Notes: a model not told the origin generated them from the sequence alone. DNA of 64,000 nucleotides from Sphingobacteriaceae bacterium (GCA_030682795.1 JAUXNJ010000019.1:94627-158626), one strand, 5' to 3'. Counted from the stretch's first letter, positions 7,977-53,978 are shown. Numbers and translations: made by a program.

Positions 7977-10900
7977 ATGTCAGAAGGAAGTATCAGGATA
8001 AAAAAAGCGGCCACCGAGTTTAACATCAGTGTTGGCCACGTGGTAGACCACCTTGCAGCCAAAGGCTTTGAAGTGGATGCCAATCCGAACGCCAAAATCA
8101 CCGACGAGATGTACGGTGTGTTGCTCCGCGACTTTGGTCAGGATAAGAAAATAAAAGAGCAGGCTGCTCAAATCAGCATTGGCGTCAACAAAAAGGAAGA
8201 CGTGGTATTGGATAAGAAGGCTTTTGGGCCTGCTACTGCCACACCCTCCGAGCCAGAAGCCGATGAAGTGCTCATTAAGGGCATGAACAAGGCAGCCGCC
8301 ACCGAAGCCAAACCTGCGCCGAAGGCGGAGGAAGCGCCTGTGGCTGCCAAGCCCGTGGCCGAAACGCCCGCGCCTGCCGCCAAAGCAGCTGTTGAAGCCG
8401 AAAAAACCGGTTTGAAAGTGCTCGGTAAAATCGACCTCAGCACAGCGGGCAAGCCCAAGGCCAAGCCTGCGGCTGAAGCACCCAAGGCAGCAGCCCCTGA
8501 GGCAGCGCCAAAGGCAGAAGCCCCTAAAGTAGCAGCGCCAGCCGCCGCACCGGCATCCCCTCAGCCGGAAGCACCCAAGGCCGCTACACCTGCCGTTCCT
8601 GAGGCACCAGCAGCTCCTGCTGCCAAAGCAGAAGCCGCTCCGCAAGTTGCAGCTCCTGTAGTTCCAGCGGTAGAAAAGCCCAAAGAAGCAACAGCCGAGG
8701 CCAAGCCAGCCGCCGCGCCAGAAGCAGCTGCACCAGTGGCCGAAGCAAAAGCTGCTACACCAGTAGCTGCGCCAGCCGCCGCTCCAAAAGCGACTGAAAA
8801 GCCTGCCGCACCCGCTGCAACAGGCGAGGACGAAGATGTGGTACGTGCCAAAGCCGACAAGCTGCAAGGCACCACGGTATTGCGCACCATCGACCTCAGT
8901 CAATTCGAAAAGCGCAAGCCGGTAGCCAGCTCTAGCGATAGCAGCGTGGGCCGCCGCAAGCGTAAGCGCAAAGACGGTCCTGCCGGAGCAGCCCCTGCCA
9001 CAGGCGCTACCCCAGCAGCCAATGTAGATCGCCCGTTGCGTTCACCAAATGCCCCTGGCACCATGCCACAGCGTCCGCAAGGCAACCGTCCACATGGCGG
9101 TGGTGGCCCTGGCGGTGGACAAGGCGGCAACCGCAGAGGTCCAGCAGCACCACTCGGACCAAAAGCCGAGCCGACAGAAAAGGAAATCCAAGATCAGATC
9201 AAGGCCACGATGGCCCGCCTACAAGGTGGTGCTAAAGGTGCCAGCAGGGCCAAATACCGCAAACAACGTCGTGATGACCATGCGCTCCGTGATGGAGCTG
9301 ATCTCAACGAAGATGGCAAAATGAAGTTGCAGGCCACCGAGTTCCTCACCACGGGTGAACTCGCTGGTTTGATGGACGTGCCGGTTGGGGAAGTCATCAT
9401 GAACTGCTTCTCGCTCGGCTTGGTGGTAACCATCAACCAGCGCCTCGATGCCGAAACCATTACATTGGTGGCCGATGAATTTGGCTACGATGTAGAGTTC
9501 ATTTCTGCCGACGCCAATGAGCCGATGATTGAGGAAGAGGACGATGCAGACAACATGACCGACCGTTCGCCGATTGTGACCATCATGGGTCACGTTGACC
9601 ACGGTAAAACCTCCTTGCTCGACTTTATCCGCAAAGAAAACGTAATTGCTGGGGAAGCTGGTGGCATCACCCAACACATTGGCGCCTATGCGGTGCAACT
9701 CGCCAATGGCAAGCAAATCACCTTCCTTGATACCCCGGGTCACGAAGCCTTTACGGCCATGCGAGCGCGTGGTGCCAAGGTAACCGACATTGTGGTGATT
9801 GTGATTGCGGCCGACGACAGCGTCATGCCACAAACCAAAGAAGCCATCAGCCACGCACAAGCGGCCAATGTGCCTTTGATATTCGCCATCAACAAGGTTG
9901 ACCGTCCAGGTGCCAATCCTGAGCGCATCCGCGAACAACTTTCGGCCATGAACATTTTGGTAGAAAGCTGGGGTGGTAAATACCAAGACCAAGAAATATC
10001 GGCCAAGTTTGGTCAGAATGTAGACGCTTTGTTAGAGAAGATTTTGCTAGAAGCTGAAATCCTCGAGCTCAAAGCCGACCCTAAAAAGCGTGCTGTGGGC
10101 ACCGTAATTGAAGCCTCCCTCGACAAGGGCCGTGGTGTAATTACCACTGTGCTCATCGAAGGCGGTACCCTCGAAATGGGAGATCCTATTTTGGCAGGTG
10201 CCAACTTTGGTAAGGTAAAGGCCTTGATGAACGAGCGCGGACAGCGCATCACCAAGGTAGGACCATCGCAGCCAGTGCAAATCCTCGGTTTCAACTCGGC
10301 CCCAACCGCCGGTGATCGTTTTTACGTAACCGAATCGGATGCCGTGGCCAAGGACGTAGGTACCAAGCGCATGCAGTTGTTGCGTGAGCAGGGCATGCGT
10401 ACCAAGAAACACATCACCCTCGATGAAATCGGTCGTCGTTTGGCCATTGGCAACTTCAAAGAGCTCAACCTCGTTGTAAAAGGCGACGTGGACGGCTCGG
10501 TAGAAGCCTTGGCCGACAGCTTGATGAAGCTGAGCACCGACCAAATCCAGGTAAACGTGATTCACAAAGGGGTGGGTCAGATCAGCGAAAGCGACGTAAT
10601 GCTCGCATCTGCTTCCGACGCCATCATTGTGGGCTTCCAGGTGCGGCCGCTCGCCTCTGTGCGTAAGCTCGCCGAGCAGGAAGAAATCGACATCCGTACC
10701 TACAGCATCATTTACGATGCTATCGACGAGATTAAGTCGGCCATGGAAGGCATGTTGGCCCCTACTTTCGAAGAGAAAGTGGTGTGCAACGTCCAAATCC
10801 GCGAGGTCTTCAAAATCTCCAAGGTGGGCACCATTGCAGGTTGTATGGTTACCGATGGCAAAATCACCCGCAACACCAAAGTACGGGTGCTCCGCGATGG

Positions 10901-22756: not shown

Positions 22757-23422
22757 TTAAGGCTTTGGTAAGGTTGCCAAATAGTTTTCAGGCAAAAACT
22801 CAACTTTGCCCGATTCGAGGTGGTAAACGGCGCCCACAATTTTTGTTTGTCCACTTGCCACCGCTTTCGACAACACCGGTTCGAGGTTCTGTAGCTGGGC
22901 TACTTGCATGGCTACATTTACTTTCACAGCGTTATCAATGCGATTTCCCTTTAAGTGAGCACTTGCTTGGGCAGCAGGTTTGATGGCATTGATCAAGGTT
23001 ACGATATGCCCGGGTACATCTGGCACCTTACAGGCAGCGGCTACCGCCCCGCATTCGGTATGCCCCAAAACCACAATCAACTTGGCACCGAGTACAGCAT
23101 TGGCAAACTCAATGCTTCCCCAAGAAGCATGGGTAGATACCTGTCCCGCGGTACGTACGATGAAAATGTCGCCTAAGCCTTGGTCGAAAATAATCTCGTT
23201 CGGCACCCGTGAATCGGAGCAGCCTACCACAATGGCAAAGGGGTTTTGTCCAGTGGCCACTTCCTTTACCCGCTTAGGACTTTGGTTGGGCCGTACCGAT
23301 TGGCCTTTGTAAAAGCGTTCGTTGCCTGCCTTTAGCAAGACTAAGGCCGAATCGGCACTCATTTGGGCGTAAGCGCAGAGGCTTAAGCTAAACCCTAAAA
23401 ATGTCAATAGCACGTATTTCAT
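22757..23422 (-). CDS. Beta-class carbonic anhydrase, secreted
   Basis: Beta-CA zinc ligands (CSDSRV ... HTECGAV). Signal peptide begins at the second Met (MKYVLLTFLGFSLSLCAYA). Confidence 0.75.
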   Translation of the reverse strand: MKYVLLTFLGFSLSLCAYAQMSADSALVLLKAGNERFYKGQSVRPNQSPKRVKEVATGQNPFAIVVGCSDSRVPNEIIFDQGLGDIFIVRTAGQVSTHASWGSIEFANAVLGAKLIVVLGHTECGAVAAACKVPDVPGHIVTLINAIKPAAQASAHLKGNRIDNAVKVNVAMQVAQLQNLEPVLSKAVASGQTKIVGAVYHLESGKVEFLPENYLATLPKP

Positions 23423-23509
23423 AGCTGGTTTTTTTAAACGCCACAAACCTACGGCGGCCCAAAACATATATTTCATTTATGTTTTCTATATTTGGCATAA
23501 GATTTTATT

Positions 23510-24451
23510 ATGAACTACACCTTGCATCAACTGCTGATCCTGGCGAAAGTGGCGGAGTGCCAAAGCATCACCCGCGCGGCCGAAGCCTTGCATTTATCGC
23601 AGCCTGCTGTTTCAGTTCAGCTAAAAAATTTGCAAGAACAATTCAAAATCCCTTTGTTTCACATTCGGGCCAAAAGGGTATTTATGACCGATTTTGGCAA
23701 TGAATTGGTACAAACCACCCTTGAAATTGCAGCACAACTCGAAAGTTTCAACTATCGGGCAAAGGGAGCCAGCGGCAAACTCAGCGGGAAGCTCAGCATC
23801 AGTATTGTATCGACTGGCAAATACATCATGCCCTATTTTTTGCAGTCCTTTCTAGCACAAAATCCAGAAGTTGAATTACGCATGGATGTGACCAACAAGG
23901 CAGGCGTCATCAGCGCACTCGATCATAGCGATGCCGAGCTGGCCTTGGTATCGGCCTTGCCGCGCCAATTAAAAATAGCTGAATTGCCCTTGCTGCAAAA
24001 TCACCTCTTTTGGGTGGTAGGACCACAGTTTCAAATCGAAAAAGCCAGCTATTCGCCAGAGATCCTGAAAACAATGCCCCTCATTTTTAGAGAAGCTGGT
24101 TCAGCTACGCGCGCAGTAATGGAACAGGTGTGTGATCGAAAAAAAGTAGGCGGCACCAAAGAGCTGGTGCTCACCACGAATGAAGCGATTAAACAAGCGA
24201 TCATGGCGGGATTAGGCTGTTCGGTTATGCCGCTTATTGGACTCAAACACGAACTCGCTAGCGGTGATTTACAACTGCTGCCGGTTAAAGGCTTGCCGGT
24301 AGTTACACAATGGCGACTTATTTGGTTGAGTACGCGTCCCCTATCGCCCGTAGCTGCGGCTTACCTGGCCCACCTGCAAAACAACCGGGAGCAGGTGTAC
24401 GAGGAGCATTTTGCATGGACCAGTGCGTACCTGCACCCGGTCAAACTTTAA
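23510..24451 (+). CDS. LysR-family transcriptional regulator (divergent from the CA-SbtA-PII operon)
   Basis: N-terminal LysR HTH (ITRAAEALHLSQPAVSVQLKNLQ) and C-terminal substrate-binding domain. Confidence 0.8.
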   Translation: MNYTLHQLLILAKVAECQSITRAAEALHLSQPAVSVQLKNLQEQFKIPLFHIRAKRVFMTDFGNELVQTTLEIAAQLESFNYRAKGASGKLSGKLSISIVSTGKYIMPYFLQSFLAQNPEVELRMDVTNKAGVISALDHSDAELALVSALPRQLKIAELPLLQNHLFWVVGPQFQIEKASYSPEILKTMPLIFREAGSATRAVMEQVCDRKKVGGTKELVLTTNEAIKQAIMAGLGCSVMPLIGLKHELASGDLQLLPVKGLPVVTQWRLIWLSTRPLSPVAAAYLAHLQNNREQVYEEHFAWTSAYLHPVKL

Positions 24452-24466
24452 AGACTTTTTTGCAGG

Positions 24467-24916
24467 CTATTTTTCGTTGTCCGTACCTATACGCTTCCAA
24501 ATGGTAAGCACATGTTTGTCACCTGCCCTGGTTTCAAAATAAGCCGGACGATACGCCTTAGGTGCGGCAAAACAGGCCTCCAAGGTATCTCCTTTTAATC
24601 GAAAAATGCCGTTGCGTTTAAGCCCGGCATCGTCATTACCCGCCACCCACACATCGAGGTGCTTGGGATAAAACATTTCTTCGTAGCGGTATTTGCCCAG
24701 TGATAAGGTAACCTCTCCTTCTTGATACACTTCAAAGCCCCCGTCTTCTACCTCTAATTCAACCGTTGCAATTTTATAATCGGGATACACCACCCCGTCA
24801 ATCTCCACATGTAAAAGCTTCCATTTACCTTCTAAATTGGCCCCAGTGGGGTGTGAATTGAGGCAGGCTGTAAGGCCCAATGAAAGCAATAACCAAAATC
24901 CGATTCGTATTAACAA
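24467..24916 (-). CDS. Lipoprotein with lipocalin-like (TIGR03067-type) domain
   Basis: Lipobox LTAC; 'EGKWKLLHVEIDG' resembles the TIGR03067 N-terminus. Confidence 0.35.
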   Translation of the reverse strand: MLIRIGFWLLLSLGLTACLNSHPTGANLEGKWKLLHVEIDGVVYPDYKIATVELEVEDGGFEVYQEGEVTLSLGKYRYEEMFYPKHLDVWVAGNDDAGLKRNGIFRLKGDTLEACFAAPKAYRPAYFETRAGDKHVLTIWKRIGTDNEK

Positions 24917-25061
24917 CTTGTAAATAATTAGGGGTGATTAAACCCAGCCTATATTAACCGAAATGCAGGACAGATAGTTTAACGCTTGCAAAAAAACCAT
25001 ATTTCTATCAAAAACAAAAACGCCCCGATAAATCGAGGCGTTCTGTTGTTAAAAATTAACG

Positions 25062-25844
25062 TTAAGGTAAGGTAATGGTACGTGTTCGGCCATTCATAGT
25101 TACTGTGGCCTGGTTGTCGCAGCTGCCGTTTCCAAAGTCAATGGTACGACTGTTGTTGCCGCGGGTGGTGGTCATCACGCCGCTCACCAGCCAATTGCAG
25201 CTCACTTCTTTGCGCAAGGGGGTGGTGATGGTTTGGCTGGAAGTGAGACCATTGCGGGTATTGCTACTGCCGCCGCTGATCAAAAATACATCGTCGCTAC
25301 GTAGCGGGGTTGCATAGCCAGCAATCATTTCGATGCTGCGGGTGGCAGTGCGTTGCATGCTGTCGTTGGTAGGACTCACCAGTAGCAAAGTGCTAGTACG
25401 ACTGAGCAGCGGATTGCCGTTGTTGAGGCTGTGTGAGCCGCTGATGCTGCCAGTAACGGCATGGTCGTTCACAAAATAATTGGTAAAGGCCACGCTGAAA
25501 CTGCTGCCTGCTTGGCGGCGTTGTCCGGTGTAGCTGATTACAACCACCCCTCTGCGGAAGCGCCCATCGGCACACAAGCAGTTGGTAGTGCCGTAGTCGA
25601 TGGTGATGGTGCGCGGCGTGGTAGTAGTGTCGCGGGTAACGGTGGCGCAAGGAGCCGGCGGAAAGCTTTCGGGGGTGTCGTTGAGGAACATCTCGTCAAA
25701 AGTGCCCTCGTCAATGGTCAATAAATTTTCGAATTGCGTGCTTTCGTCGGCCGAGCGCTGCTCGTCTTGGTCGAGATTTTCTTTTTGGCAGGCGCTTAAA
25801 GTCACTAAAAGCACAGCTGCTACGGTTAGTATTTTTTTCATCAT
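25062..25844 (-). CDS. Thr/Ser-rich lipoprotein, function unknown
   Basis: Lipobox LSAC; no recognisable domain. Lies directly downstream of the metal ABC fusion genes. Confidence 0.35.
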   Translation of the reverse strand: MMKKILTVAAVLLVTLSACQKENLDQDEQRSADESTQFENLLTIDEGTFDEMFLNDTPESFPPAPCATVTRDTTTTPRTITIDYGTTNCLCADGRFRRGVVVISYTGQRRQAGSSFSVAFTNYFVNDHAVTGSISGSHSLNNGNPLLSRTSTLLLVSPTNDSMQRTATRSIEMIAGYATPLRSDDVFLISGGSSNTRNGLTSSQTITTPLRKEVSCNWLVSGVMTTTRGNNSRTIDFGNGSCDNQATVTMNGRTRTITLP

Positions 25845-25915: not shown

Positions 25916-27418
25916 TTATGGCAGAAGCCGCACTTGTGCTTTTTCGGCAATGCTGAGGGGGAGCGAAAACGACTGTTCTTCAGAACTTAGTTCTAAGTCC
26001 CTTTCGCTGCGCGCTCGCAATTGCAACACCTGGTTGGGCGAGATACCGAGCTTCCACAAGGCAGAAGTCACCGCGGCGCTCTTTTGGGTACTCAGCACCA
26101 TCACCTGTTGGCCCGGCTTCACCTCTGCTAACAACACGGTTGTTTTGCTCCGCTGTGGGATGGGCGAACCATGTGGGTCGGTGGTAGGGAAACCTAAGCG
26201 CGCTTCTACTTCTTGCAAAAACACCTCGGGCAAGCGGTGCTCAAATTGCTCGGCTTGACCGTGAATTTGATTGCTTTGCAAGCCCATTTCCTGCACCAAA
26301 TAACTTTCCCAGATGCGGTGGGCGCGAATGAGTTGGTAGGCCCGTTCCAAACCGGCGGCACTGATTTGAATATTGTTTTGTTGCACCGGCTCCAGCCATT
26401 TCCGGCGCTGCAATGCCAGCAGTTTGCGTCGCAGCTGCCGCTCATTAAGTCCAAAGGCAGCTGCGGTTTCGGGCAAAGACTTCAACCCTTTTTCCTGCAG
26501 TTTTACCAGGGCTTTCAAAACATCTTCTAATGCCTGTAATTTCTGCCTCTTCGCCTTGCGAATACGTAGCAACAGCAATCCCTTCTTAGGAGAAAAGAGC
26601 ATGGCCAATAAATAAAATGCAGTGGCCACGAGGGTCATGGCCGGACCCGGAGTGGTTTCCCAAATGATGGCGAATATTAACCCCATACTGGCCGAAAGCA
26701 CCCCTACCAAAGCCGATAAGGCCAGCACCACCGGCAAGCGATTGCTGAGCAAGAGGGCGGTGGAAGCGGGAATGATGAGCATGGCTACTACCAAAATCAC
26801 CCCAACCGATTGCAAGGAGGCCACCACGGCAAAACTCAACAACATCATCATAAAATAATGCATGAGGTTGGCATTGATGCCTGTTGTGGTAGCCATAACC
26901 GCCTGAAAAGTGGTGACGAAAAAATATCTGTAAAAAGCCAAAATGCACAGCAGCGTATAAACCATGATGAGGCCGGTGAGCCAAATGTCCTGATCGGCAA
27001 TGCCCAACACATTGCCAAAAAGGAAATCCTTCATATCGAGGTGCACACCTTCTTGTCGCGTTACCGCCGAAATGCCGATGATGCCCAAGGCAAACATGGC
27101 CGAAAACACAATGCCAATGGCCGCGTCTTCCTTGGTTTTAACGTTACGCTGCAGCCAGGTGATGCTGAGGGCGGCGAGCAATCCTGCCACCACCGAACCA
27201 GTAAAGAAGGCAAAAATGCTGTGGCCCGCAATGAGGAAGCCCACCACCACCCCGGGCAAGATGGCGTGCGAGAGCGCATCACCGATGAGCGACATGTTCC
27301 GCAACACGATGAAAACGCCCAGGAGCCCGCAGGTAATGCCCACGAGCACCGAAGCAAGCAAGGCCCGCTGGGCATAGGCATAGCCAAATACGTCGGAAAG
27401 TTCTTGCCAGTGATTCAT
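25916..27418 (-). CDS. Fusion protein: metal (Zn/Mn/Fe) ABC transporter permease (ZnuB/MntB/TroC-like) plus C-terminal DtxR-family repressor with FeoA domain
   Basis: N-terminal about 280 aa is a multi-TM ZnuB-like permease (GDALSHAILPG). The C-terminal about 210 aa has a winged HTH, the DtxR motif RAHRIWESYL, DPHGSPIP and an FeoA/SH3-like tail. Confidence 0.7.
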   Translation of the reverse strand: MNHWQELSDVFGYAYAQRALLASVLVGITCGLLGVFIVLRNMSLIGDALSHAILPGVVVGFLIAGHSIFAFFTGSVVAGLLAALSITWLQRNVKTKEDAAIGIVFSAMFALGIIGISAVTRQEGVHLDMKDFLFGNVLGIADQDIWLTGLIMVYTLLCILAFYRYFFVTTFQAVMATTTGINANLMHYFMMMLLSFAVVASLQSVGVILVVAMLIIPASTALLLSNRLPVVLALSALVGVLSASMGLIFAIIWETTPGPAMTLVATAFYLLAMLFSPKKGLLLLRIRKAKRQKLQALEDVLKALVKLQEKGLKSLPETAAAFGLNERQLRRKLLALQRRKWLEPVQQNNIQISAAGLERAYQLIRAHRIWESYLVQEMGLQSNQIHGQAEQFEHRLPEVFLQEVEARLGFPTTDPHGSPIPQRSKTTVLLAEVKPGQQVMVLSTQKSAAVTSALWKLGISPNQVLQLRARSERDLELSSEEQSFSLPLSIAEKAQVRLLP

Positions 27419-29181
27419 CGGCTGCGGTTGAATTGTTGGGCCTGGTCGTACATGGGCTGGGTGCCGCTAAAGGTGCGCAGGATGTTGGCTTCGGTGACCA
27501 CCTCGGCCGGCGATCCAAAGGCCACCAAGCGGCGGTTGATCATAATCACCTGGTCGAAATAGGCTTGCGCCTTGCTTAAATCGTGGTGAATCATGACCAC
27601 GGTTTTGCCCTCGGCCACCAGGCGGCGGAGAATCTGAATGATTTTTTCCTCGGTGGTCACGTCTACCCCTACAAAAGGCTCGTCGAGGAAATACAGCTGG
27701 GCCTCTTGCGCCAGCGCCCGGGCCAAAAACACCCGCTGCTGCTGTCCACCCGAGAGCTCGCCAATTTGCTTGTGCAGCAGTTGCTCGAGTTCCAACTCCT
27801 GAATGTGCTGCAGTGCTTTGGCTTTGTCGGTGCTGTTGAGCGACTGAAACGGCCGTTTGTGGGGGTAGCGACCCATGAGCACGAGGTCGTACACGGTAGC
27901 GGGGAAGGTCCAGTCGATTTCCTCCTTCTGCGGCACATAGGCAATGTGGGTTTGCACCGCTTCTACCGGCAAGCCGCCGATGGTAATGGCGCCACGGTCG
28001 GTTTTGAGCAGGCCCAAAATGCTTTTGAAGAGGGTGCTTTTGCCGGAGCCGTTCGGACCAATGAGTCCGTACAACTTGCCCTGCTCGAGCTGCAAATCAA
28101 AGTGGTTGAGGATAACTTTATCGTCGTACGCCACAGTGAGGCCGTTGATGTGGATGGGGTGCTGTGCCGGCAAATCGCTGCTGTTCTTCCGCTGTATGCG
28201 CACGGCCAGTACGGCAAAGGCCAAGGCAAAAAAGCCGGCAATGATCAGCAGCATGAGCAAATCGGTACGGCGACTGTTGGCCGCGCCGCTGCCTTGGAGA
28301 CCTTCGAGCAGGGTGTCGGCATTGTGGCGGAGCATGCTCAAATAAGTGTCGGCGCCGCTGCCCTTGGGCCCCATGCTGTCGGCATACATACTGCCGCCAA
28401 TACGGATGCCGGCGTCGGCAGCTACTTGCTGCAGCAGCTTGGGGTTGATGGTGCTTTCGATGAAAAGGGCCGGTAAATTTTCGGCCTCGATGGTGCGGAT
28501 GAGGTCATGGAGGTCGCTTACCCGCACTTCGGCATCGGTGGTGGTGCCAAGTACCGACAATACCCGCATGCCATAGCGGTTGCCAAAGTAGCGAAAGGCG
28601 TCGTGGGTAGTGGCAATGATGCGGTGTTCGGCGGGAATTTGGGCGATGCGACCTTCGATATAGGTGTGGAGGGAAAGCAATTGCTGGTCGTAAGCCTCAA
28701 AATTGCGTTCTATATCGGCGGCATGGGCGGGCAACAAGCGCTGCAAACCGTTGGCCATGTTGCGAATGTAGATGCGGCCGAGCAGCGGGTCCATCCAGGC
28801 ATGCGGGTCGTAGCTGTTGGCGTGCTCAGCACTGCCAATGGGCGTGATGCCGTCGCTGGCGGTCACCAAAAGCGCTTTGCCCCCGGCCTGGTCGATGAGC
28901 TTCTTGAGCCAGCCTTCGAGGTTGAGACCATTTTCAATGATCAGATCCGCCTCAGCCAGCAGCCGAGCATCGCCGGGAACGGCTTCGTAGATGTGCGGAT
29001 CGGCCCCTAGCGGCAGCAAGGATATTACTTCGCAATGCTCCCCTGCCAACTGCTGTGCCATGTCTGCCAAAAAGCTGGTGGTGGCTACCACTTTCACCAC
29101 TGGAGCCTGTGCCGCAGTGCTGCTGGAGCTTAAAACGCCCACCATCAAAAGCAGAAAAAACAATGTGCTACGGCCTTGCAT
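27415..29181 (-). CDS. Fusion protein: metal ABC substrate-binding protein (ZnuA/TroA-like) - TM anchor - ABC ATPase (ZnuC-like)
   Basis: Signal peptide. TroA-like SBP motifs (LLPLGADPHIYEAVPGD; HDAFRYFGNRYG). One TM helix. Then Walker A GPNGSGKST, signature LSGGQQQRV and Walker B LYFLDEP. ATGA overlap with the permease-DtxR gene. Confidence 0.7.
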   Translation of the reverse strand: MQGRSTLFFLLLMVGVLSSSSTAAQAPVVKVVATTSFLADMAQQLAGEHCEVISLLPLGADPHIYEAVPGDARLLAEADLIIENGLNLEGWLKKLIDQAGGKALLVTASDGITPIGSAEHANSYDPHAWMDPLLGRIYIRNMANGLQRLLPAHAADIERNFEAYDQQLLSLHTYIEGRIAQIPAEHRIIATTHDAFRYFGNRYGMRVLSVLGTTTDAEVRVSDLHDLIRTIEAENLPALFIESTINPKLLQQVAADAGIRIGGSMYADSMGPKGSGADTYLSMLRHNADTLLEGLQGSGAANSRRTDLLMLLIIAGFFALAFAVLAVRIQRKNSSDLPAQHPIHINGLTVAYDDKVILNHFDLQLEQGKLYGLIGPNGSGKSTLFKSILGLLKTDRGAITIGGLPVEAVQTHIAYVPQKEEIDWTFPATVYDLVLMGRYPHKRPFQSLNSTDKAKALQHIQELELEQLLHKQIGELSGGQQQRVFLARALAQEAQLYFLDEPFVGVDVTTEEKIIQILRRLVAEGKTVVMIHHDLSKAQAYFDQVIMINRRLVAFGSPAEVVTEANILRTFSGTQPMYDQAQQFNRSR

Positions 29182-29253
29182 GCCACAAAGATAGGTTGTT
29201 TTTAGGTTTGTCTAAAAAATAATTTTGGAGATGCTGTTTATTGCTGGTTGGGC

Positions 29254-29280
29254 ATAAAAAAAGCCGCATCAGCGGCTTTT
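29254..29280 (-). terminator. Rho-independent terminator (minus strand) after the LTXXQ protein gene
   Basis: AAGCCGC-atca-GCGGCTT hairpin followed by T7 on the minus strand. Confidence 0.55.
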
Positions 29281-29295
29281 GGGAAATGAGCGGTA

Positions 29296-29685
29296 TTATT
29301 CAGACTGAGGCTGGCCCAATCGGCCTCTATGTTTGGCTCTTTTGGCCTCCATTTTCTGCTTCCGAAGTACTTTGTCTGCTTGGTAACGTGTTTTTTGCTC
29401 GGCATCGAGCACTTCCAGTATAGCTACTTCTTGCGCTTGCTGGGCCTGGTTCATTTCCTGACGGGCCTGACGAGCAGCTTCCTGCTTTTGGGCAATGGTA
29501 AGTTCGGTTTTCACGAGTTCGGGTTGCAAACGGGCCTGCTGATCTTGCGTTAACTGGTATTTTTTGCTCAAATGGTTTACCTTCATGCTGGCCTTTTCTT
29601 CGGGCGTTTTGGCAGGTGCAGCCTCTTGGGCTTGGGCGGCGCTCACTACAAAAGCAAGGGCGGCCATCAACATTAATTTTTTCAT
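29296..29685 (-). CDS. Periplasmic LTXXQ-motif (Spy/CpxP-like) protein
   Basis: Signal peptide MKKLMLMAALAFVVSAAQA, helical Q/K/E-rich body, LTQDQ motif. Confidence 0.4.
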   Translation of the reverse strand: MKKLMLMAALAFVVSAAQAQEAAPAKTPEEKASMKVNHLSKKYQLTQDQQARLQPELVKTELTIAQKQEAARQARQEMNQAQQAQEVAILEVLDAEQKTRYQADKVLRKQKMEAKRAKHRGRLGQPQSE

Positions 29686-29857
29686 AACAAAAAGATTTAA
29701 TGGTGGTGTGACCGCCATTCTGCCCTTGGGTTTAATCACAAACGTTAAGGAATGTCAAAGCAAAGGGCCTTTTTTTAACCAAAAGGAAACGCTTTCTACC
29801 TATTATTGTTAGGTCTATATAGTAACTTTGTTAAAACCTTAAATAATAAATCAGCTT

Positions 29858-30466
29858 ATGGCATTCGAATTACCAGCACTTCCCTATGCGCACAACGCGC
29901 TCGAACCTAATATCGACACAGCAACCATGGAAATCCACCATGGCAAACACCACGCTGCTTACGTAAACAACCTCAACGCTGCCATCGCAGGCACCGAAAA
30001 CGAAGGCAAATCGCTCGAAGATTTGATGGCCAACATCAGCAAATTGCCAGCAGCCGTTCGTAACAACGGTGGTGGTCACTACAACCACAGCTTGTTCTGG
30101 ACCGTGATGAGTCCGAACGGCGGTGGCGAACCTACAGGCGACTTGGCAGCGGCTATCAACAGCACCTTCGGTTCGTTTGCAGCCTTCAAAGAAGAATTTG
30201 CCAAGGCAGGCGCAACCCGTTTTGGCTCAGGCTGGGCGTGGTTGTGTGTTGAACATGGCAAATTGAAAGTGTGCAGCACCCCTAACCAAGACAATCCTTT
30301 GATGGATGTGGTGACCGATTGCAATGGCACACCGATTCTCGGATTAGACGTTTGGGAACATGCTTATTACCTCAACTACCAGAACCGCCGTCCCGACTAC
30401 ATCACGGCCTTTTGGAATGTGGTGAACTGGGCAGAAGTGGCTCGTCGCTACGCGGCAGCGCTCTAA
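29858..30466 (+). CDS. sodA: Fe/Mn superoxide dismutase
   Basis: Classic N-terminus [13 protein letters not shown]...[10 protein letters not shown] and C-terminal DVWEHAYY. Confidence 0.9.
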
Positions 30467-47589: not shown

Positions 47590-49179
47590 TTATGGATAAG
47601 CTATTAATTTCAAGCTAAATGGCGGCCAATCTTCAAATTCATTTCTACCTTCGAGAACAAGCTGACCTCCTCTAGGGGTAATCCACTTGCTTCTTAATCG
47701 CCCTTTTCCTGCAGGCTCAATATGATGTACAGGCCCAAAATGAGTATTAAGTGCCTCCATAAGTTGCTCTTGCACAACGGCCATGTACTGGGTAATGGGC
47801 TTTCTATCTGCGAAAATATGCTGCAATCCTGTTCTGAGGTATGGTTGCGTTTCTACAAATTCTAAACGACATCCCAGCCACACGCTATCAGAAGCTCGAA
47901 ACACATGTTCTGTCTTAATGGTAAGTATGGAATCGATAACAGCCCGGTGCATTTGTGTGAATTGCTGCACGGGCGGGTTTTGAATGGGTAAATAATACCC
48001 AACCCCTGTGCCTTGTCTGCTTTTTTGCATATTAGTACTGCCCCTAAACGCCTCAAGTTCATTCACACGTTTAAAATCAGCTATTTGACCAGAAAGAAGC
48101 TCGAAATAGCCCTGCCAGTTTGGTGTATGCTGATAAAGAAGCGTGTCGTAAAGCAATGTCCATTTTTGAAGGTGGAGCAATTCGCCTTTTATTTGCAGCA
48201 CCGTATAATGAACATTGTCTGAATGTCCGTATTCAAGCAAGCGCGAACTATCGTTGGGGTTGAGTCCTCGATATGCATTGTGCCAACGGCTATAAATGCG
48301 TTTAGGACCAAGATCAAGCAGAGGAATCCACTCATTTCCGGAATACTTTGCCACCAAAAGCCGTGTGCTATCATTTATCACATGTAAAAGCTGCCCATTG
48401 GCTACCCAACTCCGATGCAAGCCTAGCCTACTGGTATCAAAAGAATAGTACTCTCTTTCTGTGGTATCAGCCCAAATAGTAGTCTCTCCTTGCGGTTCAA
48501 CAGGAGGAAAAGCAGCAGGGCGGCGCCGTTTTTGGTAGCGATAGGCAGGAGGACAAGGCAAAAGATCCCGTGGATCAGCTATAAGACTAAGTGCACTACT
48601 GTAATCGAGGTAATATTTCCCTTGAAACCGGGTCATTCGGTCACTGCTGTAAGGCGTAATGTATTGTTTTTTCGTTTTTTTATCGATGAACCACGTGCAA
48701 GATCCCCATTCTCCGTAATCTCTATAGTATACGCGATACCGTTCATCTTCATACACTTGATTACTCCGTTTTCGGTATTCTAGCCAGCCGTCTTTCTTTA
48801 AATCGAAGCGATAGCTCCGGTTGTGCATGTAAGGAAGCAAATGTAATTGATCATTTTGTACGTATAAATCGAGGTAAATAGTGTTTTTGCGTACCACATC
48901 GGGCAGCGGTAGTTCACGCAAAAGCTCGCCTGAACGATTAAAAACAAATAGCCGAAACCAATCAGTATTGTGTGGTTGTGGGTCCCGTTCTGTCATCGTC
49001 ACATACCAATGCCCGTCGAAATCGGCCAAATGGGAGATATAAAAATAGCACCCAGGTGTTTGAACCCCGCGTACATCAAGCGTCAGGCTGTCATGTTGTA
49101 ACTCTAATTGGGGATGAGGGCGATCTTGCGCTTGGGTAATGGCCCCACAACACCAGAACATAAACACCAAGCCGAGCAT
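47590..49179 (-). CDS. Secreted 529-aa protein of unknown function
   Basis: The second in-frame ATG (49179) gives a clean signal peptide MLGLVFMFWCCGAITQAQ; the ORF track starts 17 codons upstream (49230). Trp/Tyr-rich, no known domain recognised. Confidence 0.4.
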   Translation of the reverse strand: MLGLVFMFWCCGAITQAQDRPHPQLELQHDSLTLDVRGVQTPGCYFYISHLADFDGHWYVTMTERDPQPHNTDWFRLFVFNRSGELLRELPLPDVVRKNTIYLDLYVQNDQLHLLPYMHNRSYRFDLKKDGWLEYRKRSNQVYEDERYRVYYRDYGEWGSCTWFIDKKTKKQYITPYSSDRMTRFQGKYYLDYSSALSLIADPRDLLPCPPAYRYQKRRRPAAFPPVEPQGETTIWADTTEREYYSFDTSRLGLHRSWVANGQLLHVINDSTRLLVAKYSGNEWIPLLDLGPKRIYSRWHNAYRGLNPNDSSRLLEYGHSDNVHYTVLQIKGELLHLQKWTLLYDTLLYQHTPNWQGYFELLSGQIADFKRVNELEAFRGSTNMQKSRQGTGVGYYLPIQNPPVQQFTQMHRAVIDSILTIKTEHVFRASDSVWLGCRLEFVETQPYLRTGLQHIFADRKPITQYMAVVQEQLMEALNTHFGPVHHIEPAGKGRLRSKWITPRGGQLVLEGRNEFEDWPPFSLKLIAYP

Positions 49180-49481
49180 ATGTTGTTTAATGATCCGCTT
49201 TTGGTAATGGTATGTTTGGTTCAAATACATTTAGCTTTTTAGGTAAAGAAGTGCGGAATCAGCCTTCGAAATCTTGCAATAAATTCACAAACCAGAGAAA
49301 AACATTGGATGATGTCCACATGGCCTTGGAATGTACTTTGTATGAACTAAGTTAAGCAATGAAGCTGTAACAAACCACAGCTTAAGGCCTTTTGCCGAAT
49401 TATTGCATTTCGGTGACACCAGGTCGTTCGCCTGGAACTGCTTTGTAAAGACAGCAAATAACCTTATTTGGAGAAGTTTGA

Positions 49482-49622
49482 CTACTTAAAATGTCCCGGC
49501 ATCCGCTGCAATTCCATCAGCTTCGCCCTCAGCTTTTCCATTTCGTTGCTTTTGTTGGTTTTGAAGCGCAGGATAGGGAAATCGTACTTCTCCAGGATGC
49601 GGTCTTTCATTTGATCGCGCTC
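49482..49622 (-). pseudogene. Truncated remnant of a DUF559 (Vsr-like endonuclease domain) gene
   Basis: Only the C-terminal about 45 codons are in frame (…RDQMKDRILEKYDFPILRFKTNKSNEMEKLRAKLMELQ), resembling the DUF559 C-terminus (…G..VLRF.N.EV…); upstream is frameshifted or absent. Confidence 0.3.
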
Positions 49623-49650
49623 GGCTTATTGGCTGCCGGTTTGGTGGAAT

Positions 49651-50445
49651 TCATTTTATAAATACATGTTCATAATGGTATTCTAAAAACAGCTTCGACG
49701 GGATAAACTTATCTGGAATTTGAATTTTTATATTGTCAAAAGCTTTGAAATAAGCCTGGACTGCCATTTCGCTTTCAAAATCCATGAAAGCCTTTGATAA
49801 GCAAACTTTAAAGTCACTAGTTATGGTCATGTAGCCTTTATCAAACGCCCGGTCGTGCAAGGCATTCAGACAAAGTCCATTTCGTGGATTTAACCTTTCC
49901 TTTTCATTTTTACTCCAAGGAACAATATGGCTCGCAACTAATAAGGCCGGGATTGACAAACCTGTGATACAGCATTTAGAATAGTAATTATTTAGAACCA
50001 TGGTTCTAAAAACAGATTGATTAACCCTGGCTTGAACCTGGCGCATTGCTGACTTACCTTCCAAATCTTTAATATCTAGCAGTATATCGGCATATTTTTT
50101 GGCAATGGTGGTTTTTTGTCTTTCTGCCAAAATTTCCTCGCTCTTAAAAACCAACTCTTCTTGGTTGCTATAAAACTCATCCCAAATGGGCTGTACTTGA
50201 TTCATCCCACCTTTCAGTCCACCAATACCCCTCGCTTGGAGTCCTGGGTCGCAACTGGCAAAATTTCCCAAACGCATACCAATTGAACTAGGTGTCCTGT
50301 CCAAGAGATTAGCCAAATCAATTATCTCAGGGTTATGCTTGTGCATTTTCCCAAAGGGTAACTTCAAATAAAGATTAAAGGCTAAAATTAGCTCTTCACG
50401 AGTCCAGAGGTTTTTGGGCATGGAGGTTTCAACTTGCTTGAACAA
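49651..50445 (-). CDS. HNH endonuclease (HNH_2-type), putative type IV/modification-dependent restriction nuclease
   Basis: C-terminal HNH_2 motif (ALLVASHIVPWSKN...NGLCLNALHDRAFDKGYMTI) with a roughly 130-aa N-terminal domain of unknown fold. Confidence 0.5.
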   Translation of the reverse strand: MFKQVETSMPKNLWTREELILAFNLYLKLPFGKMHKHNPEIIDLANLLDRTPSSIGMRLGNFASCDPGLQARGIGGLKGGMNQVQPIWDEFYSNQEELVFKSEEILAERQKTTIAKKYADILLDIKDLEGKSAMRQVQARVNQSVFRTMVLNNYYSKCCITGLSIPALLVASHIVPWSKNEKERLNPRNGLCLNALHDRAFDKGYMTITSDFKVCLSKAFMDFESEMAVQAYFKAFDNIKIQIPDKFIPSKLFLEYHYEHVFIK

Positions 50446-50914
50446 AAATTAAGTAATTAAAATTAGTTGATTTATTCGGGCATTTGATATGTAAAAACAT
50501 GATTTGTTACGTTTTTATTAAGACGGGCATGTGATCGCATAAGCTGCTTATTAATTGCATTAAAAATTCTATATTTTGAGCTCGGCTGTCATTAACAATG
50601 GTTTCTGTTTTCGTGTGAGCCGCAGTTCAGTATTGCCTTTTGCGTTGGCCAATTCTTCTTTAAACTCCGTGAGATAGGTTAGAGTTGGATTAAGTGTAAT
50701 TCGCTCATACTATTCTCTAATCTGCGGTATGGAGCTTAGCAACTATTCACTTCATTCGCTTATTGGTGAAAGGCACGAGAATCAGCACATAATGCCTCTC
50801 TCTTGGCATTGTACGATTCTAGAAAAGCCTCTATTACTGCCTTTCAGGCTTTGAAAACTGGCTTTAAATCTAGCATTTGATACATTTTCACTTTTTACTG
50901 TTGAAAACTTGTCT

Positions 50915-50931
50915 TGGACATTTTTTGTCCA
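50915..50931 (+). promoter_or_regulatory. Candidate C-box operator palindrome upstream of the RM controller gene
   Basis: Perfect inverted repeat TGGACA-ttttt-TGTCCA about 50 bp upstream of the HTH gene. A second IR AACTAA-N9-TTAGTT lies at about 50957-50977. Confidence 0.35.
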
Positions 50932-50979
50932 TAAACAACAAATCCTTAGTTTTGAAACTAATAGTCCGTTTTAGTTACG

Positions 50980-51297
50980 ATGAAAAATATCAAAAGTTTT
51001 GGCGAGCATTTGAGGTCATTAAGAGAAAATGCGGGGTTAACTCTCAAAACAGTTGCAGAACAAATAGGCGTAGACACGTCTCTACTTGCAAAAATTGAAC
51101 GAAATGAAAGACAACCTTCAAAAAGCCTCATCAAAGACGCAGCATTATTTTTCAAAGTCGATGAAAAAGAATTGACAAAACTGTATTTAAGTGACGTTAT
51201 AGCCTATAAAATTTTAGATGAAGAGGGCGACATAAGTATTCTAGAAGTAGCTGAGACGAAAGTGAAATATCTAACTGCCGTTAAAAATGAAAAATGA
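50980..51297 (+). CDS. XRE-family HTH protein, probable RM controller (C) protein
   Basis: HTH (LTLKTVAEQIGVDTSLLAKIERNER). Directly upstream of, and overlapping, the C5-methyltransferase gene. Confidence 0.55.
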   Translation: MKNIKSFGEHLRSLRENAGLTLKTVAEQIGVDTSLLAKIERNERQPSKSLIKDAALFFKVDEKELTKLYLSDVIAYKILDEEGDISILEVAETKVKYLTAVKNEK

Positions 51298-52600
51298 AAT
51301 CACAGTCATCGAATTATTCGCAGGGGTTGGCGGGTTTCGACTTGGTCTAGAAGGTTGGCAAGGAAAATCCGCTTCTTCCTTTTATCAAAAAGCATTGGAA
51401 TCCTCATACAAAGTGATTTGGAGCAATCAATGGGAACCTTCTACAAAAGCTCAACACGCATCATTGGTTTATGAAAGTAAATTTGGCAAGCAGGATCATT
51501 CTAATGAAGACATAGCTCAGGTGGATGTATCTAGCATACCAGATCATGATTTACTTGTTGGAGGTTTTCCTTGTCAAGACTATTCTGTTGCAACTACTTT
51601 AAAAAACTCAAAAGGTTTAATAGGTAAAAAAGGTGTTCTTTGGTGGAGTATTCATAAAATATTGAGCGATAAAAAGAATAAACCAAAGTACTTATTTCTT
51701 GAAAATGTTGACCGTCTCCTAATCTCTCCATCAGGCCAGCGCGGAAGGGACTTTGCAATAATTCTCAAGAGTTTAAACGACCTTGGCTATGCTGTCGAGT
51801 GGAGAGTAATTAATGCTGCAGATTACGGGATGCCTCAAAGAAGACGAAGGGTTTTTATTTTGGCCTATCTCAATTCCACCGACATTTACCAACAGTTACA
51901 GGAAACCTCGCCTGTAGATTGGATTTTGGAAGAAGGAACCCTCGCCGATGCTTTACCCGTGACATCAAAGATGATGTTATTTCCAACAGAATTTAAATTG
52001 GTTGGAGATGTTGTACATATATCTGATCATTTTAATAAAGATAAAAATGTGGGGGTTTTTGAAAACACTGGAGTTATGCTTAACGGAGTAGTGACTACCA
52101 TCAAAACAGTACCAAGCTATGGTGGTGAACAGACTTTGTTAGGTGATATTCTTCAAAATGGCGAAGTATCCTCCGAATTTTACATTGATAAAGAGGACTT
52201 AGACAAGTGGCATTACCTTAAAGGACCTAAAAAGGAACTTCGCAAAAACGCTGATGGCTTTGAATATCATTATAATGAAGGAGGGATGATTTTTCCTGAT
52301 TCGCTTGACAAACCGTCCAGAACCATAATAACAGGTGAAGGAGGTAAATCCCCTTCAAGATTCAAGCACGTCATACATACTTCAAAAGGATATAGGCGCT
52401 TGTCTCCAGTGGAATTAGAAAGATTGAACATGTTTCCTGATAATCATACCAAACTAGAAGGTGTAAGCGATGCAAAAAGAGCCTTTTTCATGGGTAACGC
52501 ATTAGTAGTTGGGGTAATTGAGAAAATTGGCATTTCTTTATGTCAAAAAATTTCCCAAAATGTTAGCTTACAATCCGGAAAACAAGAGGTCTGTAGTTGA
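51287..52600 (+). CDS. DNA (cytosine-5)-methyltransferase
   Basis: Motifs I (FAGVGGFRLG), IV (GGFPCQDYS), VI (ENV), VIII (QRRRRVF) and X (GNALVVGV). Confidence 0.9.
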   Translation: MKNEITVIELFAGVGGFRLGLEGWQGKSASSFYQKALESSYKVIWSNQWEPSTKAQHASLVYESKFGKQDHSNEDIAQVDVSSIPDHDLLVGGFPCQDYSVATTLKNSKGLIGKKGVLWWSIHKILSDKKNKPKYLFLENVDRLLISPSGQRGRDFAIILKSLNDLGYAVEWRVINAADYGMPQRRRRVFILAYLNSTDIYQQLQETSPVDWILEEGTLADALPVTSKMMLFPTEFKLVGDVVHISDHFNKDKNVGVFENTGVMLNGVVTTIKTVPSYGGEQTLLGDILQNGEVSSEFYIDKEDLDKWHYLKGPKKELRKNADGFEYHYNEGGMIFPDSLDKPSRTIITGEGGKSPSRFKHVIHTSKGYRRLSPVELERLNMFPDNHTKLEGVSDAKRAFFMGNALVVGVIEKIGISLCQKISQNVSLQSGKQEVCS

Positions 52601-53978
52601 TTACGCCAAACGCTTAATAAATAAGACACTACGGGAGGCCTGCGAATCAAATATACTAGAACACAATTTCAAGGGTAAAGGAAATTTTGGTCAAGTACTT
52701 GAGAAATTCTATTTCGGATATGAGCCAAATTCGAATTCTGAGCCAGATTTCAGACATATCGGATTAGAACTCAAATCTACTCCGCTAAAAACGCTGAAAA
52801 CTGGAGAAATAAGGTCGAAGGAACGTTTGGTCCTGAACATTATTAATTACAACTCTATAGTTAACCAAAACTTTGATGGTAGTGATTTTTGGAAAAAGAA
52901 CGCCCAGCTTCTTATAATTTTCTTTTTGCACGAACCTAATATCAAGATTCTAGACTATACGATAAAACTTGTTGATGAGTGGGGATTTTCAGAGACGGAT
53001 TTAAAGGTCATAAAAAAAGACTGGCAAATTATCAGGCAGAAAATACAAGAAGGTAAGGCTCATGAACTATCTGAAGGAGATACTTTGTACCTAGCTGCAT
53101 GCACGAAAGGTGCAAATGCCCAATCGCTACGACAACAACCTCATTCACCAATCCCCGCCAAACAACGCGCCTTCTCTTTGAAACAAGGTTATGTGAACCA
53201 CATTATTGCTACACTCGCAGGAGAGTCCTCCATAAGATATGGCAAGTTAATTCCATCCTTAAACGAATTTACCGAGGAATCCCTTGAAGAAATAATCCTA
53301 AAAAAATTCAAACCATACTATACCAAGAACGTGGAAGAAATTTCTACACTTACTGGAATCAAGCTAAATATGAGTGCGAAAAACTTCTATTCAAAGCTTA
53401 CGCATGCAATCTTAAATATAGACCTTAAAAAAGAAATTGAAGAGCTTGCAAAAGCAAATATTGAAGTCAAAACTATTCGAGTGGAAAAAAACGGCCAGAT
53501 AGAACAATCTGTTTCTTTTCCTGCATTTGAGTTTATTACTCTTTATAATGAACACTGGATTACCAGCGAATTAAAAGAGAAAATTGAAAAGAAATTTCTT
53601 TTTATTTTCTTCAAACATGATGGTTCCTGCTACAGATTAGAAAAAATCAAATTCTGGAACATGCCGTTGACCGACAGAAATGAGGTGCGAAAAATTTGGC
53701 TCAAAACCAAATATGTAGTCCAGAATGGTGACGTTTTCAATGAATATGACAGAGACAGCTTTGGAAATATACGATTGTCGATAAAAGGGCACAAAATTAA
53801 AAAGAATAATTTTCCTAAGATCAGCGATAGTCGCATTTGTCATGTCCGACCACATGGTAGGGATTCTACTGAAACATATCCGCTTCCAGTTCAAGACAAA
53901 AAATTAAACGAAATGGAATATACTAAACAATGCTTTTGGCTCAACAATACATATGTACGTGATGAGATTTATCTGTGA
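52560..53978 (+). CDS. Type II restriction endonuclease, Sau3AI/MutH-like
   Basis: N-terminal MutH-type catalytic motif EPDFRHIGLELKSTPL (D...E-x-K). The 473-aa length is close to the roughly 490-aa R.Sau3AI (N-terminal catalytic plus duplicated C-terminal domain). Overlaps the MTase 3' end. Confidence 0.55.
   Translation: MLAYNPENKRSVVDYAKRLINKTLREACESNILEHNFKGKGNFGQVLEKFYFGYEPNSNSEPDFRHIGLELKSTPLKTLKTGEIRSKERLVLNIINYNSIVNQNFDGSDFWKKNAQLLIIFFLHEPNIKILDYTIKLVDEWGFSETDLKVIKKDWQIIRQKIQEGKAHELSEGDTLYLAACTKGANAQSLRQQPHSPIPAKQRAFSLKQGYVNHIIATLAGESSIRYGKLIPSLNEFTEESLEEIILKKFKPYYTKNVEEISTLTGIKLNMSAKNFYSKLTHAILNIDLKKEIEELAKANIEVKTIRVEKNGQIEQSVSFPAFEFITLYNEHWITSELKEKIEKKFLFIFFKHDGSCYRLEKIKFWNMPLTDRNEVRKIWLKTKYVVQNGDVFNEYDRDSFGNIRLSIKGHKIKKNNFPKISDSRICHVRPHGRDSTETYPLPVQDKKLNEMEYTKQCFWLNNTYVRDEIYL

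Follow-up and report, generated by a model that had tools for sequence, protein, structure and literature searches.

Two overlapping genes encode a metal importer on two polypeptides

We analysed a 64,000-nucleotide stretch of DNA from a Sphingobacteriaceae bacterium (GCA_030682795.1, JAUXNJ010000019.1:94627-158626), referred to here as the window, and concentrated on a two-gene metal-transport operon on its minus strand. An earlier annotation made from the DNA alone, which we call the sequence-only reading, had proposed that a metal ATP-binding cassette (ABC) importer is collapsed here into two fusion polypeptides, with its own DtxR repressor fused to the permease. Both open reading frames (ORFs) are found where that reading placed them, and the ATGA overlap that it described can be read directly: the stop codon of gene 1 runs into the start codon of gene 2 (...AGC CGA TGA / ATG AAT CAC...). 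Translational coupling of the two genes is supported. Their assignments draw on Pfam, NCBIfam, protein clusters and AlphaFold:

27415..29181, minus strand: gene 1, a fusion of a binding protein, a transmembrane (TM) helix and an ATPase, 588 amino acids (aa)
25916..27418, minus strand: gene 2, a fusion of a permease and a DtxR-fold module, 500 aa; its start overlaps the stop of gene 1

The Pfam search that the sequence-only reading had proposed returned ZnuA (PF01297, residues 31-293, 265 bits) and ABC_tran (PF00005, residues 358-503, 106 bits) in gene 1, and ABC-3 (PF00950, residues 13-275, 241 bits) and Fe_dep_repr_C (PF02742, residues 355-422, 77 bits) in gene 2. As shown or strongly supported by the evidence below, the locus encodes a complete two-polypeptide divalent-metal importer of the TroA/PsaBC class under a DtxR-family operator that overlaps the promoter.

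Both fusions recur in independent protein clusters (90% identity, drawn from NCBI, JGI, ENA and Logan assemblies). The gene 1 architecture (PF01297 plus PF00005 in about 580 aa) is present in all of the best 120 clusters, down to 47% identity, and the gene 2 architecture is present in at least 120. The closed isolate genome of Pontibacter sp. G13 carries the same two-gene cassette among different neighbours and without a second permease, as do three further long contigs, and the fused cassette is found in about 25 metagenome loci. Given that the same fusions occur in more than 120 clusters each, in a closed genome and on about 25 metagenome contigs, with their linker lengths conserved, there is next to no chance that frameshifts or missed stop codons in assembly or annotation merged four ordinary genes, an idea that had in its favour a prior suspicion of sequence from a metagenome-assembled genome (MAG) and the existence of split versions in relatives.

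Gene 1 tethers a periplasmic binding protein to a cytoplasmic ATPase

Gene 1 is divided as follows, in order from its N-terminus:

29104..29181, minus strand: signal peptide, aa 1-26; hydrophobic segment 6-24, model helix 3-19; cleavage predicted from the AQA motif (...AQA, before P)
28294..29103, minus strand: periplasmic cluster A-I metal-binding domain, aa 27-296, with His63, His127, His193 and Asp268; PF01297, homologue alignment, solved relatives
28261..28293, minus strand: flexible periplasmic tether, aa 297-307 (about 11 residues); predicted local distance difference test score (pLDDT) below 50 at 300-305; varies among homologues
28192..28260, minus strand: single TM helix, aa 308-330; hydropathy 2.91, model helix 308-330
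28156..28191, minus strand: short cytoplasmic linker, aa 331-342 (about 12 residues); AlphaFold model
27418..28155, minus strand: ATPase, or nucleotide-binding domain (NBD), aa 343-588, with Walker A, signature, Walker B and H-loop intact; PF00005, homologue alignment

A hydropathy scan and the AlphaFold model (mean pLDDT 87) both give a single signal peptide and a single TM helix (308-330). Together with the Pfam matches, they bear out the order that the sequence-only reading had given (signal peptide, TroA-like substrate-binding protein (SBP), one TM helix, ATPase), and they support its view that this topology is coherent, with the binding protein outside and the ATPase inside. The signal peptide exports the chain and delivers the His3Asp domain to the periplasm; the TM helix, with its short tethers, returns the chain to the cytoplasm, where the ATPase lies.

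The closest solved relatives of the binding domain are 8svc, 5kzj and TroA (1toa/1k0f), and residues 151-180 of the model form the long interdomain helix that characterises proteins of cluster A-I. His63, His127, His193 and Asp268 are invariant among 32 homologues. They align, with matching spacing, with the DPH, DPHxW, HDAF and D motifs of Treponema pallidum TroA, which we take to hold the metal ligands of that protein. This alignment assigns the site to the His3Asp type of TroA and AztC and not to the His2GluAsp type of PsaA. No ZnuA-type His-rich loop is visible in the gene 1 translation.

The TM helix is found in all 119 scorable gene 1 homologues; its end lies 45-50 residues from the Walker A motif in 116 proteins and 58 residues from it in the remaining 3. 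Among the homologues, P0021-P0036 (660-721 aa) carry low-complexity inserts of 60-130 aa in the periplasmic tether, either acidic or rich in Asn and Gln (for example GSGAQQETGSG repeats and NNDRNNDRNE).

The ATPase fold spans residues 343-576 of the model; an MntA-type NCBIfam model matches it with 230 bits and PsaB (7kyo) with an E-value of 5e-51. The catalytic columns are invariant: G375-T383 (GxNGxGKST), S477-Q480 (SGGQ), D500/E501 and H532/H533. The ATPase part of gene 1 contains no Cys, ends just past the NBD and has no zinc-sensing tail of the ZnuC type (CxxxHxxCC). The best NCBIfam models for the ATPase and the binding protein are of the MntA, AztC and MntC types, and the top model for the binding protein is the zinc protein AztC.

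Gene 2 joins a PsaC-like permease to a DtxR-fold module

The second polypeptide comprises five segments:

26579..27418, minus strand: ABC-3 permease domain, aa 1-280, nine TM helices, Asp47/His51 site; PF00950, PsaC match, AlphaFold helix pattern
26528..26578, minus strand: basic connector helix, aa 281-297, running from the membrane into DtxR helix 1; AlphaFold, homologues
26354..26527, minus strand: winged helix-turn-helix (wHTH)-fold domain, aa 298-355, with invariant E298-D299-x-L-K; model helices 315-322 and 326-338 plus wing, DR2539 superposition at 2.0 A
26144..26353, minus strand: DtxR metal-binding/dimerisation domain, aa 356-425, with H367, E371, H386, E390, E393 and H394; PF02742, 77-79 bits
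25919..26143, minus strand: SH3-like (FeoA-like) C-terminal domain, aa 426-500; beta strands 438-498, Foldseek, NCBIfam MntR model to residue 496

The permease matches PsaC (7kyp) both by sequence (E 2e-51) and in Foldseek (E 5e-15). PsaC coordinates metal through Asp46 and His50 (PMC8346216); the equivalent residues D47 and H51 are invariant in the homologues. We found no second ABC-3 permease gene in the window locus, nor in any locus of the window type (L081-L091 and similar), and a sole nine-TM permease implies that it would act as a homodimer. The assembly is probably (gene 1)2(gene 2)2.

The last TM helix of the permease (257-275) is followed by the connector, which forms with DtxR helix 1 an unbroken helix from residue 281 to 309 (pLDDT 83-90), helix 1 bearing the ligand D299. 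The connector is exactly 17 residues long in 120 of 121 homologues and has a mean net charge of +6. The fused module is therefore membrane-attached, following TM9 through a 17-residue helix, and is not a soluble cytoplasmic protein. We considered whether the regulator might be translated separately from an internal start and rejected this, given that Met273 is present in just 19% of homologues and every other Met column in 15% or fewer.

Beyond helix 1, the model (pLDDT 83-90) runs through alpha2, alpha3, the wing, the dimerisation helices and an SH3-like beta domain. The NCBIfam MntR model covers residues 296-496, and Foldseek aligns about 210-220 columns to three-domain Mn/Fe repressors; for the Mn repressor DR2539, its DNA complex included, the alignment covers 128 columns at 2.0 A. 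Seven residues (D299, H367, E371, H386, E390, E393 and H394) align with the ligands of DtxR and MntR and are invariant among 47 homologues. The pairing is with DtxR H79/E83/H98/C102(E)/E105/H106 and MntR H77/E99/E102/H103; in the DtxR and MntR reference sequences that we used, the known ligand numbers were checked and land on the right residues. The ligand pattern is that of MntR, with Asp at the position of DtxR M10 (D299) and Glu at that of DtxR C102.

The sequence-only reading had described a complete DtxR-type regulator with an added FeoA/SH3-like domain, citing the motifs RAHRIWESYL and DPHGSPIP. Both motifs are present in the translation, and the regulator is borne out by PF02742, the NCBIfam MntR model, AlphaFold and Foldseek. 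Its completeness is less clear in the Pfam models: neither PF01325, the DNA-binding domain model, nor the FeoA model PF04023 matches the window protein at E<=10. A free relative scores 64.9 bits against PF01325, which reaches E ~0.1 in two of four fusions tested from other phyla, and PF04023 matches are precomputed for many homologues. Only the full-length NCBIfam alignment, the AlphaFold model and Foldseek identify the wHTH and SH3-like domains here, and the SH3-like domain is missing from some homologues of about 420 aa. In the wHTH domain the fold is retained while the sequence has diverged: column identity is 0.31 across the domain and 0.23 in the recognition helix, and the helix-3 region is strongly basic, with a net charge of +3.8.

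A conserved MntR-type operator overlaps the promoter

Three features lie between gene 1 and the gene upstream of it:

29199..29218, minus strand: MntR-type operator, a 20-bp perfect palindrome TTTTTAGACAAACCTAAAAA (core 29200-29217, TTTTAG-N6-CTAAAA); inverted-repeat search, locus comparison
29186..29193, minus strand: Bacteroidetes-type -7 box TATCTTTG (TAnnTTTG), with the ATG 4 nt downstream and the operator 5 nt upstream; read from the sequence
29259..29280, minus strand: terminator-like hairpin AAAAGCCGCTGATGCGGCTTTT followed by a T-run; a 9-bp inverted repeat that would end the upstream gene (29296-29739) and insulate the operon

The sequence-only reading had suggested searching this region for a DtxR/MntR box, and one is present at 29200-29217 and strongly conserved. 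The palindrome TTTTTAGACAAACCTAAAAA lies 17 nt ahead of the gene 1 ATG. It occurs once in the window, where 0.30 copies are expected, which is weak evidence taken alone. Comparison of loci is far more telling. Of 43 distinct related loci, 32 carry the box with at most one mismatch, and 38 with at most two, no more than 200 nt ahead of the operon's first gene; the background is 1 match in 275,302 nt. The nominal binomial P for this enrichment is ~1e-91, a figure that is not a true probability because the loci are related. Among 41 distinct sites, 38-40 retain TTTAG and 40-41 retain CTAAA. In dtxR-led operons the box relocates to the front of the free-standing dtxR gene, and the same box is found in operon types B, C and D, which have a free dtxR.

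We named TATCTTTG from TAnnTTTG, which we take to be the Bacteroidetes promoter consensus. The same series of operator, TAnnTTTG and ATG, the last within about 5-8 nt, is found in L085, L087, L089, L090 and L123, with a longer leader in L083 and L088. By this comparison, the conserved palindrome is shown to cover the upstream half of a predicted Bacteroidetes-type promoter. A scan of the region for sigma-70 promoters and terminators scored no better than shuffled sequence, as expected for a Bacteroidetes promoter.

The palindrome is not confined to ABC operons. In Flavobacterium sp. 83 and a Chitinophagales MAG it precedes Nramp-Usp (MntH-type) genes by 32-70 nt, and in L164 and L167 it stands ahead of the free dtxR gene. 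Because the box stands at Nramp/MntH genes and at free dtxR genes, we conclude from these comparisons that it is a general Bacteroidota MntR box and that the window operon belongs to a predicted manganese regulon.

Two further observations concern the genes that share this box. The Nramp (MntH-type) transporters of Flavobacterium sp. 83 (L165 2937-4808) and the Chitinophagales MAG (L166 6918-8783) are fused to a universal stress protein (Usp) domain, and are thus another fusion of a transporter with a cytoplasmic domain in the same regulon. Genes for outer-membrane channels of family PF13557 (Phenol_MetA_deg) lie between both fusion genes in L164 (7532-8335) and beside Nramp in L165 (2099-2851) and L166 (8791-9537), and in L165 the MntR box is in the shared promoter region. 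The PF13557 protein in manganese loci is a candidate outer-membrane Mn2+ channel.

The likely substrate

Mn2+ is most likely the transported metal, given the MntR-type ligands of the sensor, membership in a regulon with Nramp and an Fe/Mn superoxide dismutase (SOD) gene next door; that MntA-type models are the best for the ATPase is a further indication of manganese. This assignment leaves Zn2+ open, a point that we take up with the others that bear on the model as a whole.

The operator is constrained and the fused recognition helix is not

The sequence-only reading had called the fused module the transporter's own repressor. To see whether the sequences fit that role, we compared fused modules with free regulators. 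The column identity of the recognition helix is 0.23 in 121 fused proteins versus 0.77 in 120 free proteins, while that of the dimer/metal domain is similar in the two groups (0.60 fused, 0.72 free). The free regulators have a highly conserved recognition helix, TAASVTDMLKKL, where the fused modules have a variable basic helix 3. Precomputed PF01325 matches tell the same story: they are listed for 120 of 120 free proteins (the best 120 of more than 8000) versus 1 of 120 fused proteins. Close relatives have near-identical operators and unrelated exposed helix-3 residues. Finally, four operons (in L092, L098, L108 and L164) carry both the free and the fused form of DtxR. These data show relaxed constraint on the fused recognition helix, which does not in itself prove a loss of DNA binding. 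Given the general nature of the MntR box, the unconserved fused recognition helix (0.23 versus 0.77) and the operons with both forms of DtxR, the description of the module as the transporter's own repressor is doubtful.

We favour, with a modest preference, a division of labour: the box would be read by an ordinary free regulator of the MntR type whose gene lies elsewhere in the genome, and the fused DtxR module would serve as a built-in metal sensor that acts on the transporter. When cytoplasmic Mn2+ is sufficient, a metal-loaded dimer of the DtxR/MntR family would sit on the box and block RNA polymerase. The fused module, which keeps its metal sites and dimer interface and is held on a rigid basic helix of fixed length, would sense cytoplasmic metal and throttle the transporter post-translationally, in the manner of ZnuC, instead of serving as the operon's sequence-specific repressor. 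Our best explanation as a whole is a complete high-affinity importer of the TroABCD/PsaABC/YtgABCD class, with this sensor role included; we lean slightly towards it. We put forward only tentatively the stronger and more general proposal that the fused DtxR of Bacteroidota is no longer a transcription factor at all and has become an Mn2+ sensor rigidly coupled to the last TM helix, gating the transporter or sequestering MntR, with a free MntR reading the operator.

Several points weigh against this explanation. The window contains no free DtxR gene in its 64 kb, and a free MntR in this organism is assumed. The wHTH fold is modelled with high confidence, is never deleted and is strongly basic, which would fit nucleic-acid binding. 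HTH sequences are similarly divergent in the fusions from other phyla, so divergence alone is no proof of lost DNA binding. The binding site is of the His3Asp type of TroA and AztC and its best model is a zinc protein, which keeps Zn2+ in play. We infer the stoichiometry, the position of the extra TM helix and the gating. And YtgC-YtgR, the closest characterised fusion, is cleaved in vivo and, in vitro, binds the promoter from which it is expressed (PMC5599777).

That last example is the basis for an alternative in which the fused module itself represses the operon: released by proteolysis or still tethered, it would bind Mn2+, Fe2+ or Zn2+, dimerise and occupy 29200-29217, coupling the dosage of transporter and repressor. 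We consider this the less likely of the two, though it is the main rival and accounts for a good deal. Work on Chlamydia has reported binding to the promoter, repression and a cleavage product of 28 kDa (PMC5599777); in the proteins studied here, every metal ligand of the fused module is invariant, the wHTH fold is intact and superposes at about 2 A on DNA-bound DR2539, and the helix-3 region carries its charge of +3.8. Window-type loci also keep the operator without a free dtxR gene beside the operon, in line with the lack of a free DtxR within the 64-kb window. Against it stands a near-invariant operator paired with a recognition helix that shows no conservation (0.23). Free MntR regulators use this box too, at Nramp genes and in dtxR operons, and free and fused forms within single operons would be redundant. 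PF01325 goes undetected in the window protein, the fixed 17-residue helical connector resembles a structural coupling and not a cleavable linker, and there is no conserved internal Met from which the module could be translated on its own.

We regard as improbable a third arrangement, in which the fused module heterodimerises with free MntR and titrates it to the membrane according to the state of transport or metal, tuning the Mn regulon as a trigger transporter comparable to Mlc-PtsG and MalT-MalK. It would make sense of the dimerisation and metal domains, which are alike and equally conserved in free and fused forms, of the co-encoding of both forms in type B loci and L164, and of the unconstrained DNA-reading helix of the fused form. 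The case for it is nonetheless purely inferential, and most loci are of the window type, with no adjacent free regulator.

The fusion in gene 1 is narrow and probably arose by loss of a stop codon

The phyletic survey that the sequence-only reading had recommended gave different outcomes for the two fusions: that of binding protein and ATPase is narrow and mainly found in Bacteroidota, and that of permease and DtxR occurs in other phyla as well. Among the matches listed, none of 80 genome loci of other lineages encodes the binding protein and the ATPase in a single ORF. These 80 loci come from an alignment-query survey of genome contigs that was swamped by generic motifs and returned no Bacteroidota fusions; we used them as a negative control and as a source of permease-DtxR fusions from other phyla. 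When we queried 1.84 billion representatives with the junction only (residues 250-372), about 12 representatives at 50% identity, a rough count, span it; the other matches are tails of unfused binding proteins. Based on the absence of fusions among the 80 loci and the dozen or so representatives that span the junction, we place the gene 1 fusion in a narrow, mainly Bacteroidota clade, as far as sequence searches tell. We found no description of this fusion in the searchable literature, where one may still exist.

The closest split relatives (L116, L120, L131, L133-136 and L154) are 41-56% identical to gene 1. Their binding protein terminates in a TM helix plus 4-6 residues, and the ATPase start lies a few bases from its stop codon. 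Given split relatives with a C-terminal TM helix and a nearly abutting ATPase start, the fusion is best explained by loss of one stop codon between the gene for a tail-anchored binding protein and the adjoining ATPase gene. Readthrough or recoding of the stop codon in the same-frame split relatives, which we also considered, is needless, since each ATPase ORF has its own Met right after the stop.

One group of related operons has a different composition. In L096, L111, L116-L120, L131, L133-L136, L154 and L167, dtxR is followed by the binding protein and ATPase, fused or split, with no permease gene within 2.5-5 kb downstream; the permease must lie elsewhere, which is unusual for ABC importers.

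Neighbouring genes

The sequence-only reading had noted a Thr-rich lipoprotein after the two genes. The ORF is present downstream of gene 2 (25062-25844, minus strand), but it stands beside the cassette in no other locus and has no family match beyond its lipobox, and we rejected it as a third component of the module. It is followed by a strong terminator-like hairpin (25017-25044) and a second lipoprotein-like ORF (24467-24916, minus strand), likewise with no family assignment beyond the lipobox. Both lipoprotein-like ORFs may be co-transcribed with the operon here; they are not conserved with it elsewhere.

The gene immediately upstream of the operon (29296-29739, minus strand) codes for a small exported protein that contains the LTXXQ-like motif LTQDQQ and lacks a significant match in Pfam. 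The Fe/Mn SOD gene (29858-30466, plus strand) is divergent from it, and the intergenic region common to the two contains no MntR box. Farther away, 22757-24451 holds a beta-carbonic anhydrase with an N-terminal hydrophobic signal-like segment beside a divergent LysR-family regulator. The GC content falls to 0.36-0.43 at about 48-56 kb (48001-56000), compared with about 0.52 elsewhere, and this region may be a foreign island; the 8001-10000 bin has a GC content of 0.574 and an unusually high AT skew of 0.26.

Comparison with known metal importers

The sequence-only reading had presented a membrane-anchored DtxR-permease fusion as an unusual architecture. It is an already known kind: in YtgC-YtgR of Chlamydia trachomatis (CT069), cleavage separates from the permease a C-terminal domain that binds and represses the ytg promoter, and permease-DtxR fusions have been reported in 11 phyla (PMC5599777). 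We also found them in Cyclobacteriaceae, Desulfobacterales and Planctomycetota. In a Desulfobacterales MAG (L004 7755-10492) and a Planctomycetota MAG (L005 7631-10365) there are two tandem ABC-3 permease genes, each fused to a DtxR-like domain, so that both halves of a heterodimeric permease carry the regulator module. Like YtgABCD, the window operon combines an ABC-3 permease fused in frame to a C-terminal DtxR module, with metal ligands kept, with a cluster A-I binding protein and an ATPase. Unlike YtgABCD, it has one permease (no YtgD), a binding protein fused to the ATPase and an SH3-like third domain; and unlike the case of YtgR, its operator is a general MntR box, which Nramp genes and free regulators also use, and the recognition helix of the fused module lacks conservation.

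The window operon has the same three functional modules and DtxR-family regulation as TroABCD-TroR of Treponema pallidum, PsaABC of Streptococcus pneumoniae and AztABC of Paracoccus, and shares with them a TroA-type His3Asp site, a PsaC-type nine-TM permease with its Asp/His site and a PsaB/MntA-type ATPase. In those systems, each of the four functions has its own polypeptide, with a binding protein that is either soluble or anchored by a lipid, whereas here the functions are fused. Set beside the cluster A-I importers of the TCDB MZT family, the window system has the binding-protein, permease and ATPase features but not the separate polypeptides.

Binding domains tethered to a translocator are also known from OpuA and GlnPQ, where fusion to the permease fixes the stoichiometry at two per complex (PMC3971661). 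In those proteins the fusion is to a type I permease; in the window system it is to the ATPase, through a TM helix of its own, in a type II-like (PsaC-like) importer. For the proposed sensor, the functional analogy is ZnuBC, an importer of the same class with a built-in cytoplasmic metal sensor: the C-terminal domain of Escherichia coli ZnuC (motif CxxxHxxCC) senses zinc and locks ZnuBC when zinc is bound (PMC12236471). The ZnuC sensor is a small Cys/His motif on the ATPase, whereas here a whole DtxR-fold module on the permease would do the sensing, and gating is a prediction. The free Bacteroidota MntR-type regulators (PF01325+PF02742+PF04023) share their three-domain fold, metal ligands and operator box with the window system; they differ in being soluble and in having the conserved TAASVTDMLKKL, where the fused module is membrane-attached.

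Implications

The new parts of this system are the fusion of binding protein, TM helix and ATPase and the mismatch between operator and recognition helix. In stressing the permease-DtxR fusion, the sequence-only reading gave too little weight to the first of these, which is the truly poorly described one. The fusion would fix two receptors per transporter and add a tenth helix to each half-transporter. This makes it an appealing minimal system of two chains for structural and single-molecule studies of the coupling between receptor docking and ATP hydrolysis in type II metal importers. Natural split and fused versions that are one stop codon apart amount to a ready-made evolutionary experiment. 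For annotation, the conserved box supplies an MntR operator of Bacteroidota together with its regulon, which comprises Nramp-Usp, the PF13557 channel and these ABC operons.

Whether a DtxR fused to a membrane protein acts on DNA, and by what means, has long been an open question in Chlamydia. With an invariant operator facing an unconstrained fused helix, that question becomes directly testable in bacteria that live freely and can be cultured, Pontibacter sp. G13 among them. Post-translational metal gating may extend beyond ZnuC. If the sensor reading is true, these cells would have a self-contained two-polypeptide importer that captures its metal, pumps it and limits itself, and the widespread 'YtgR-like' fusions would not all be repressors.

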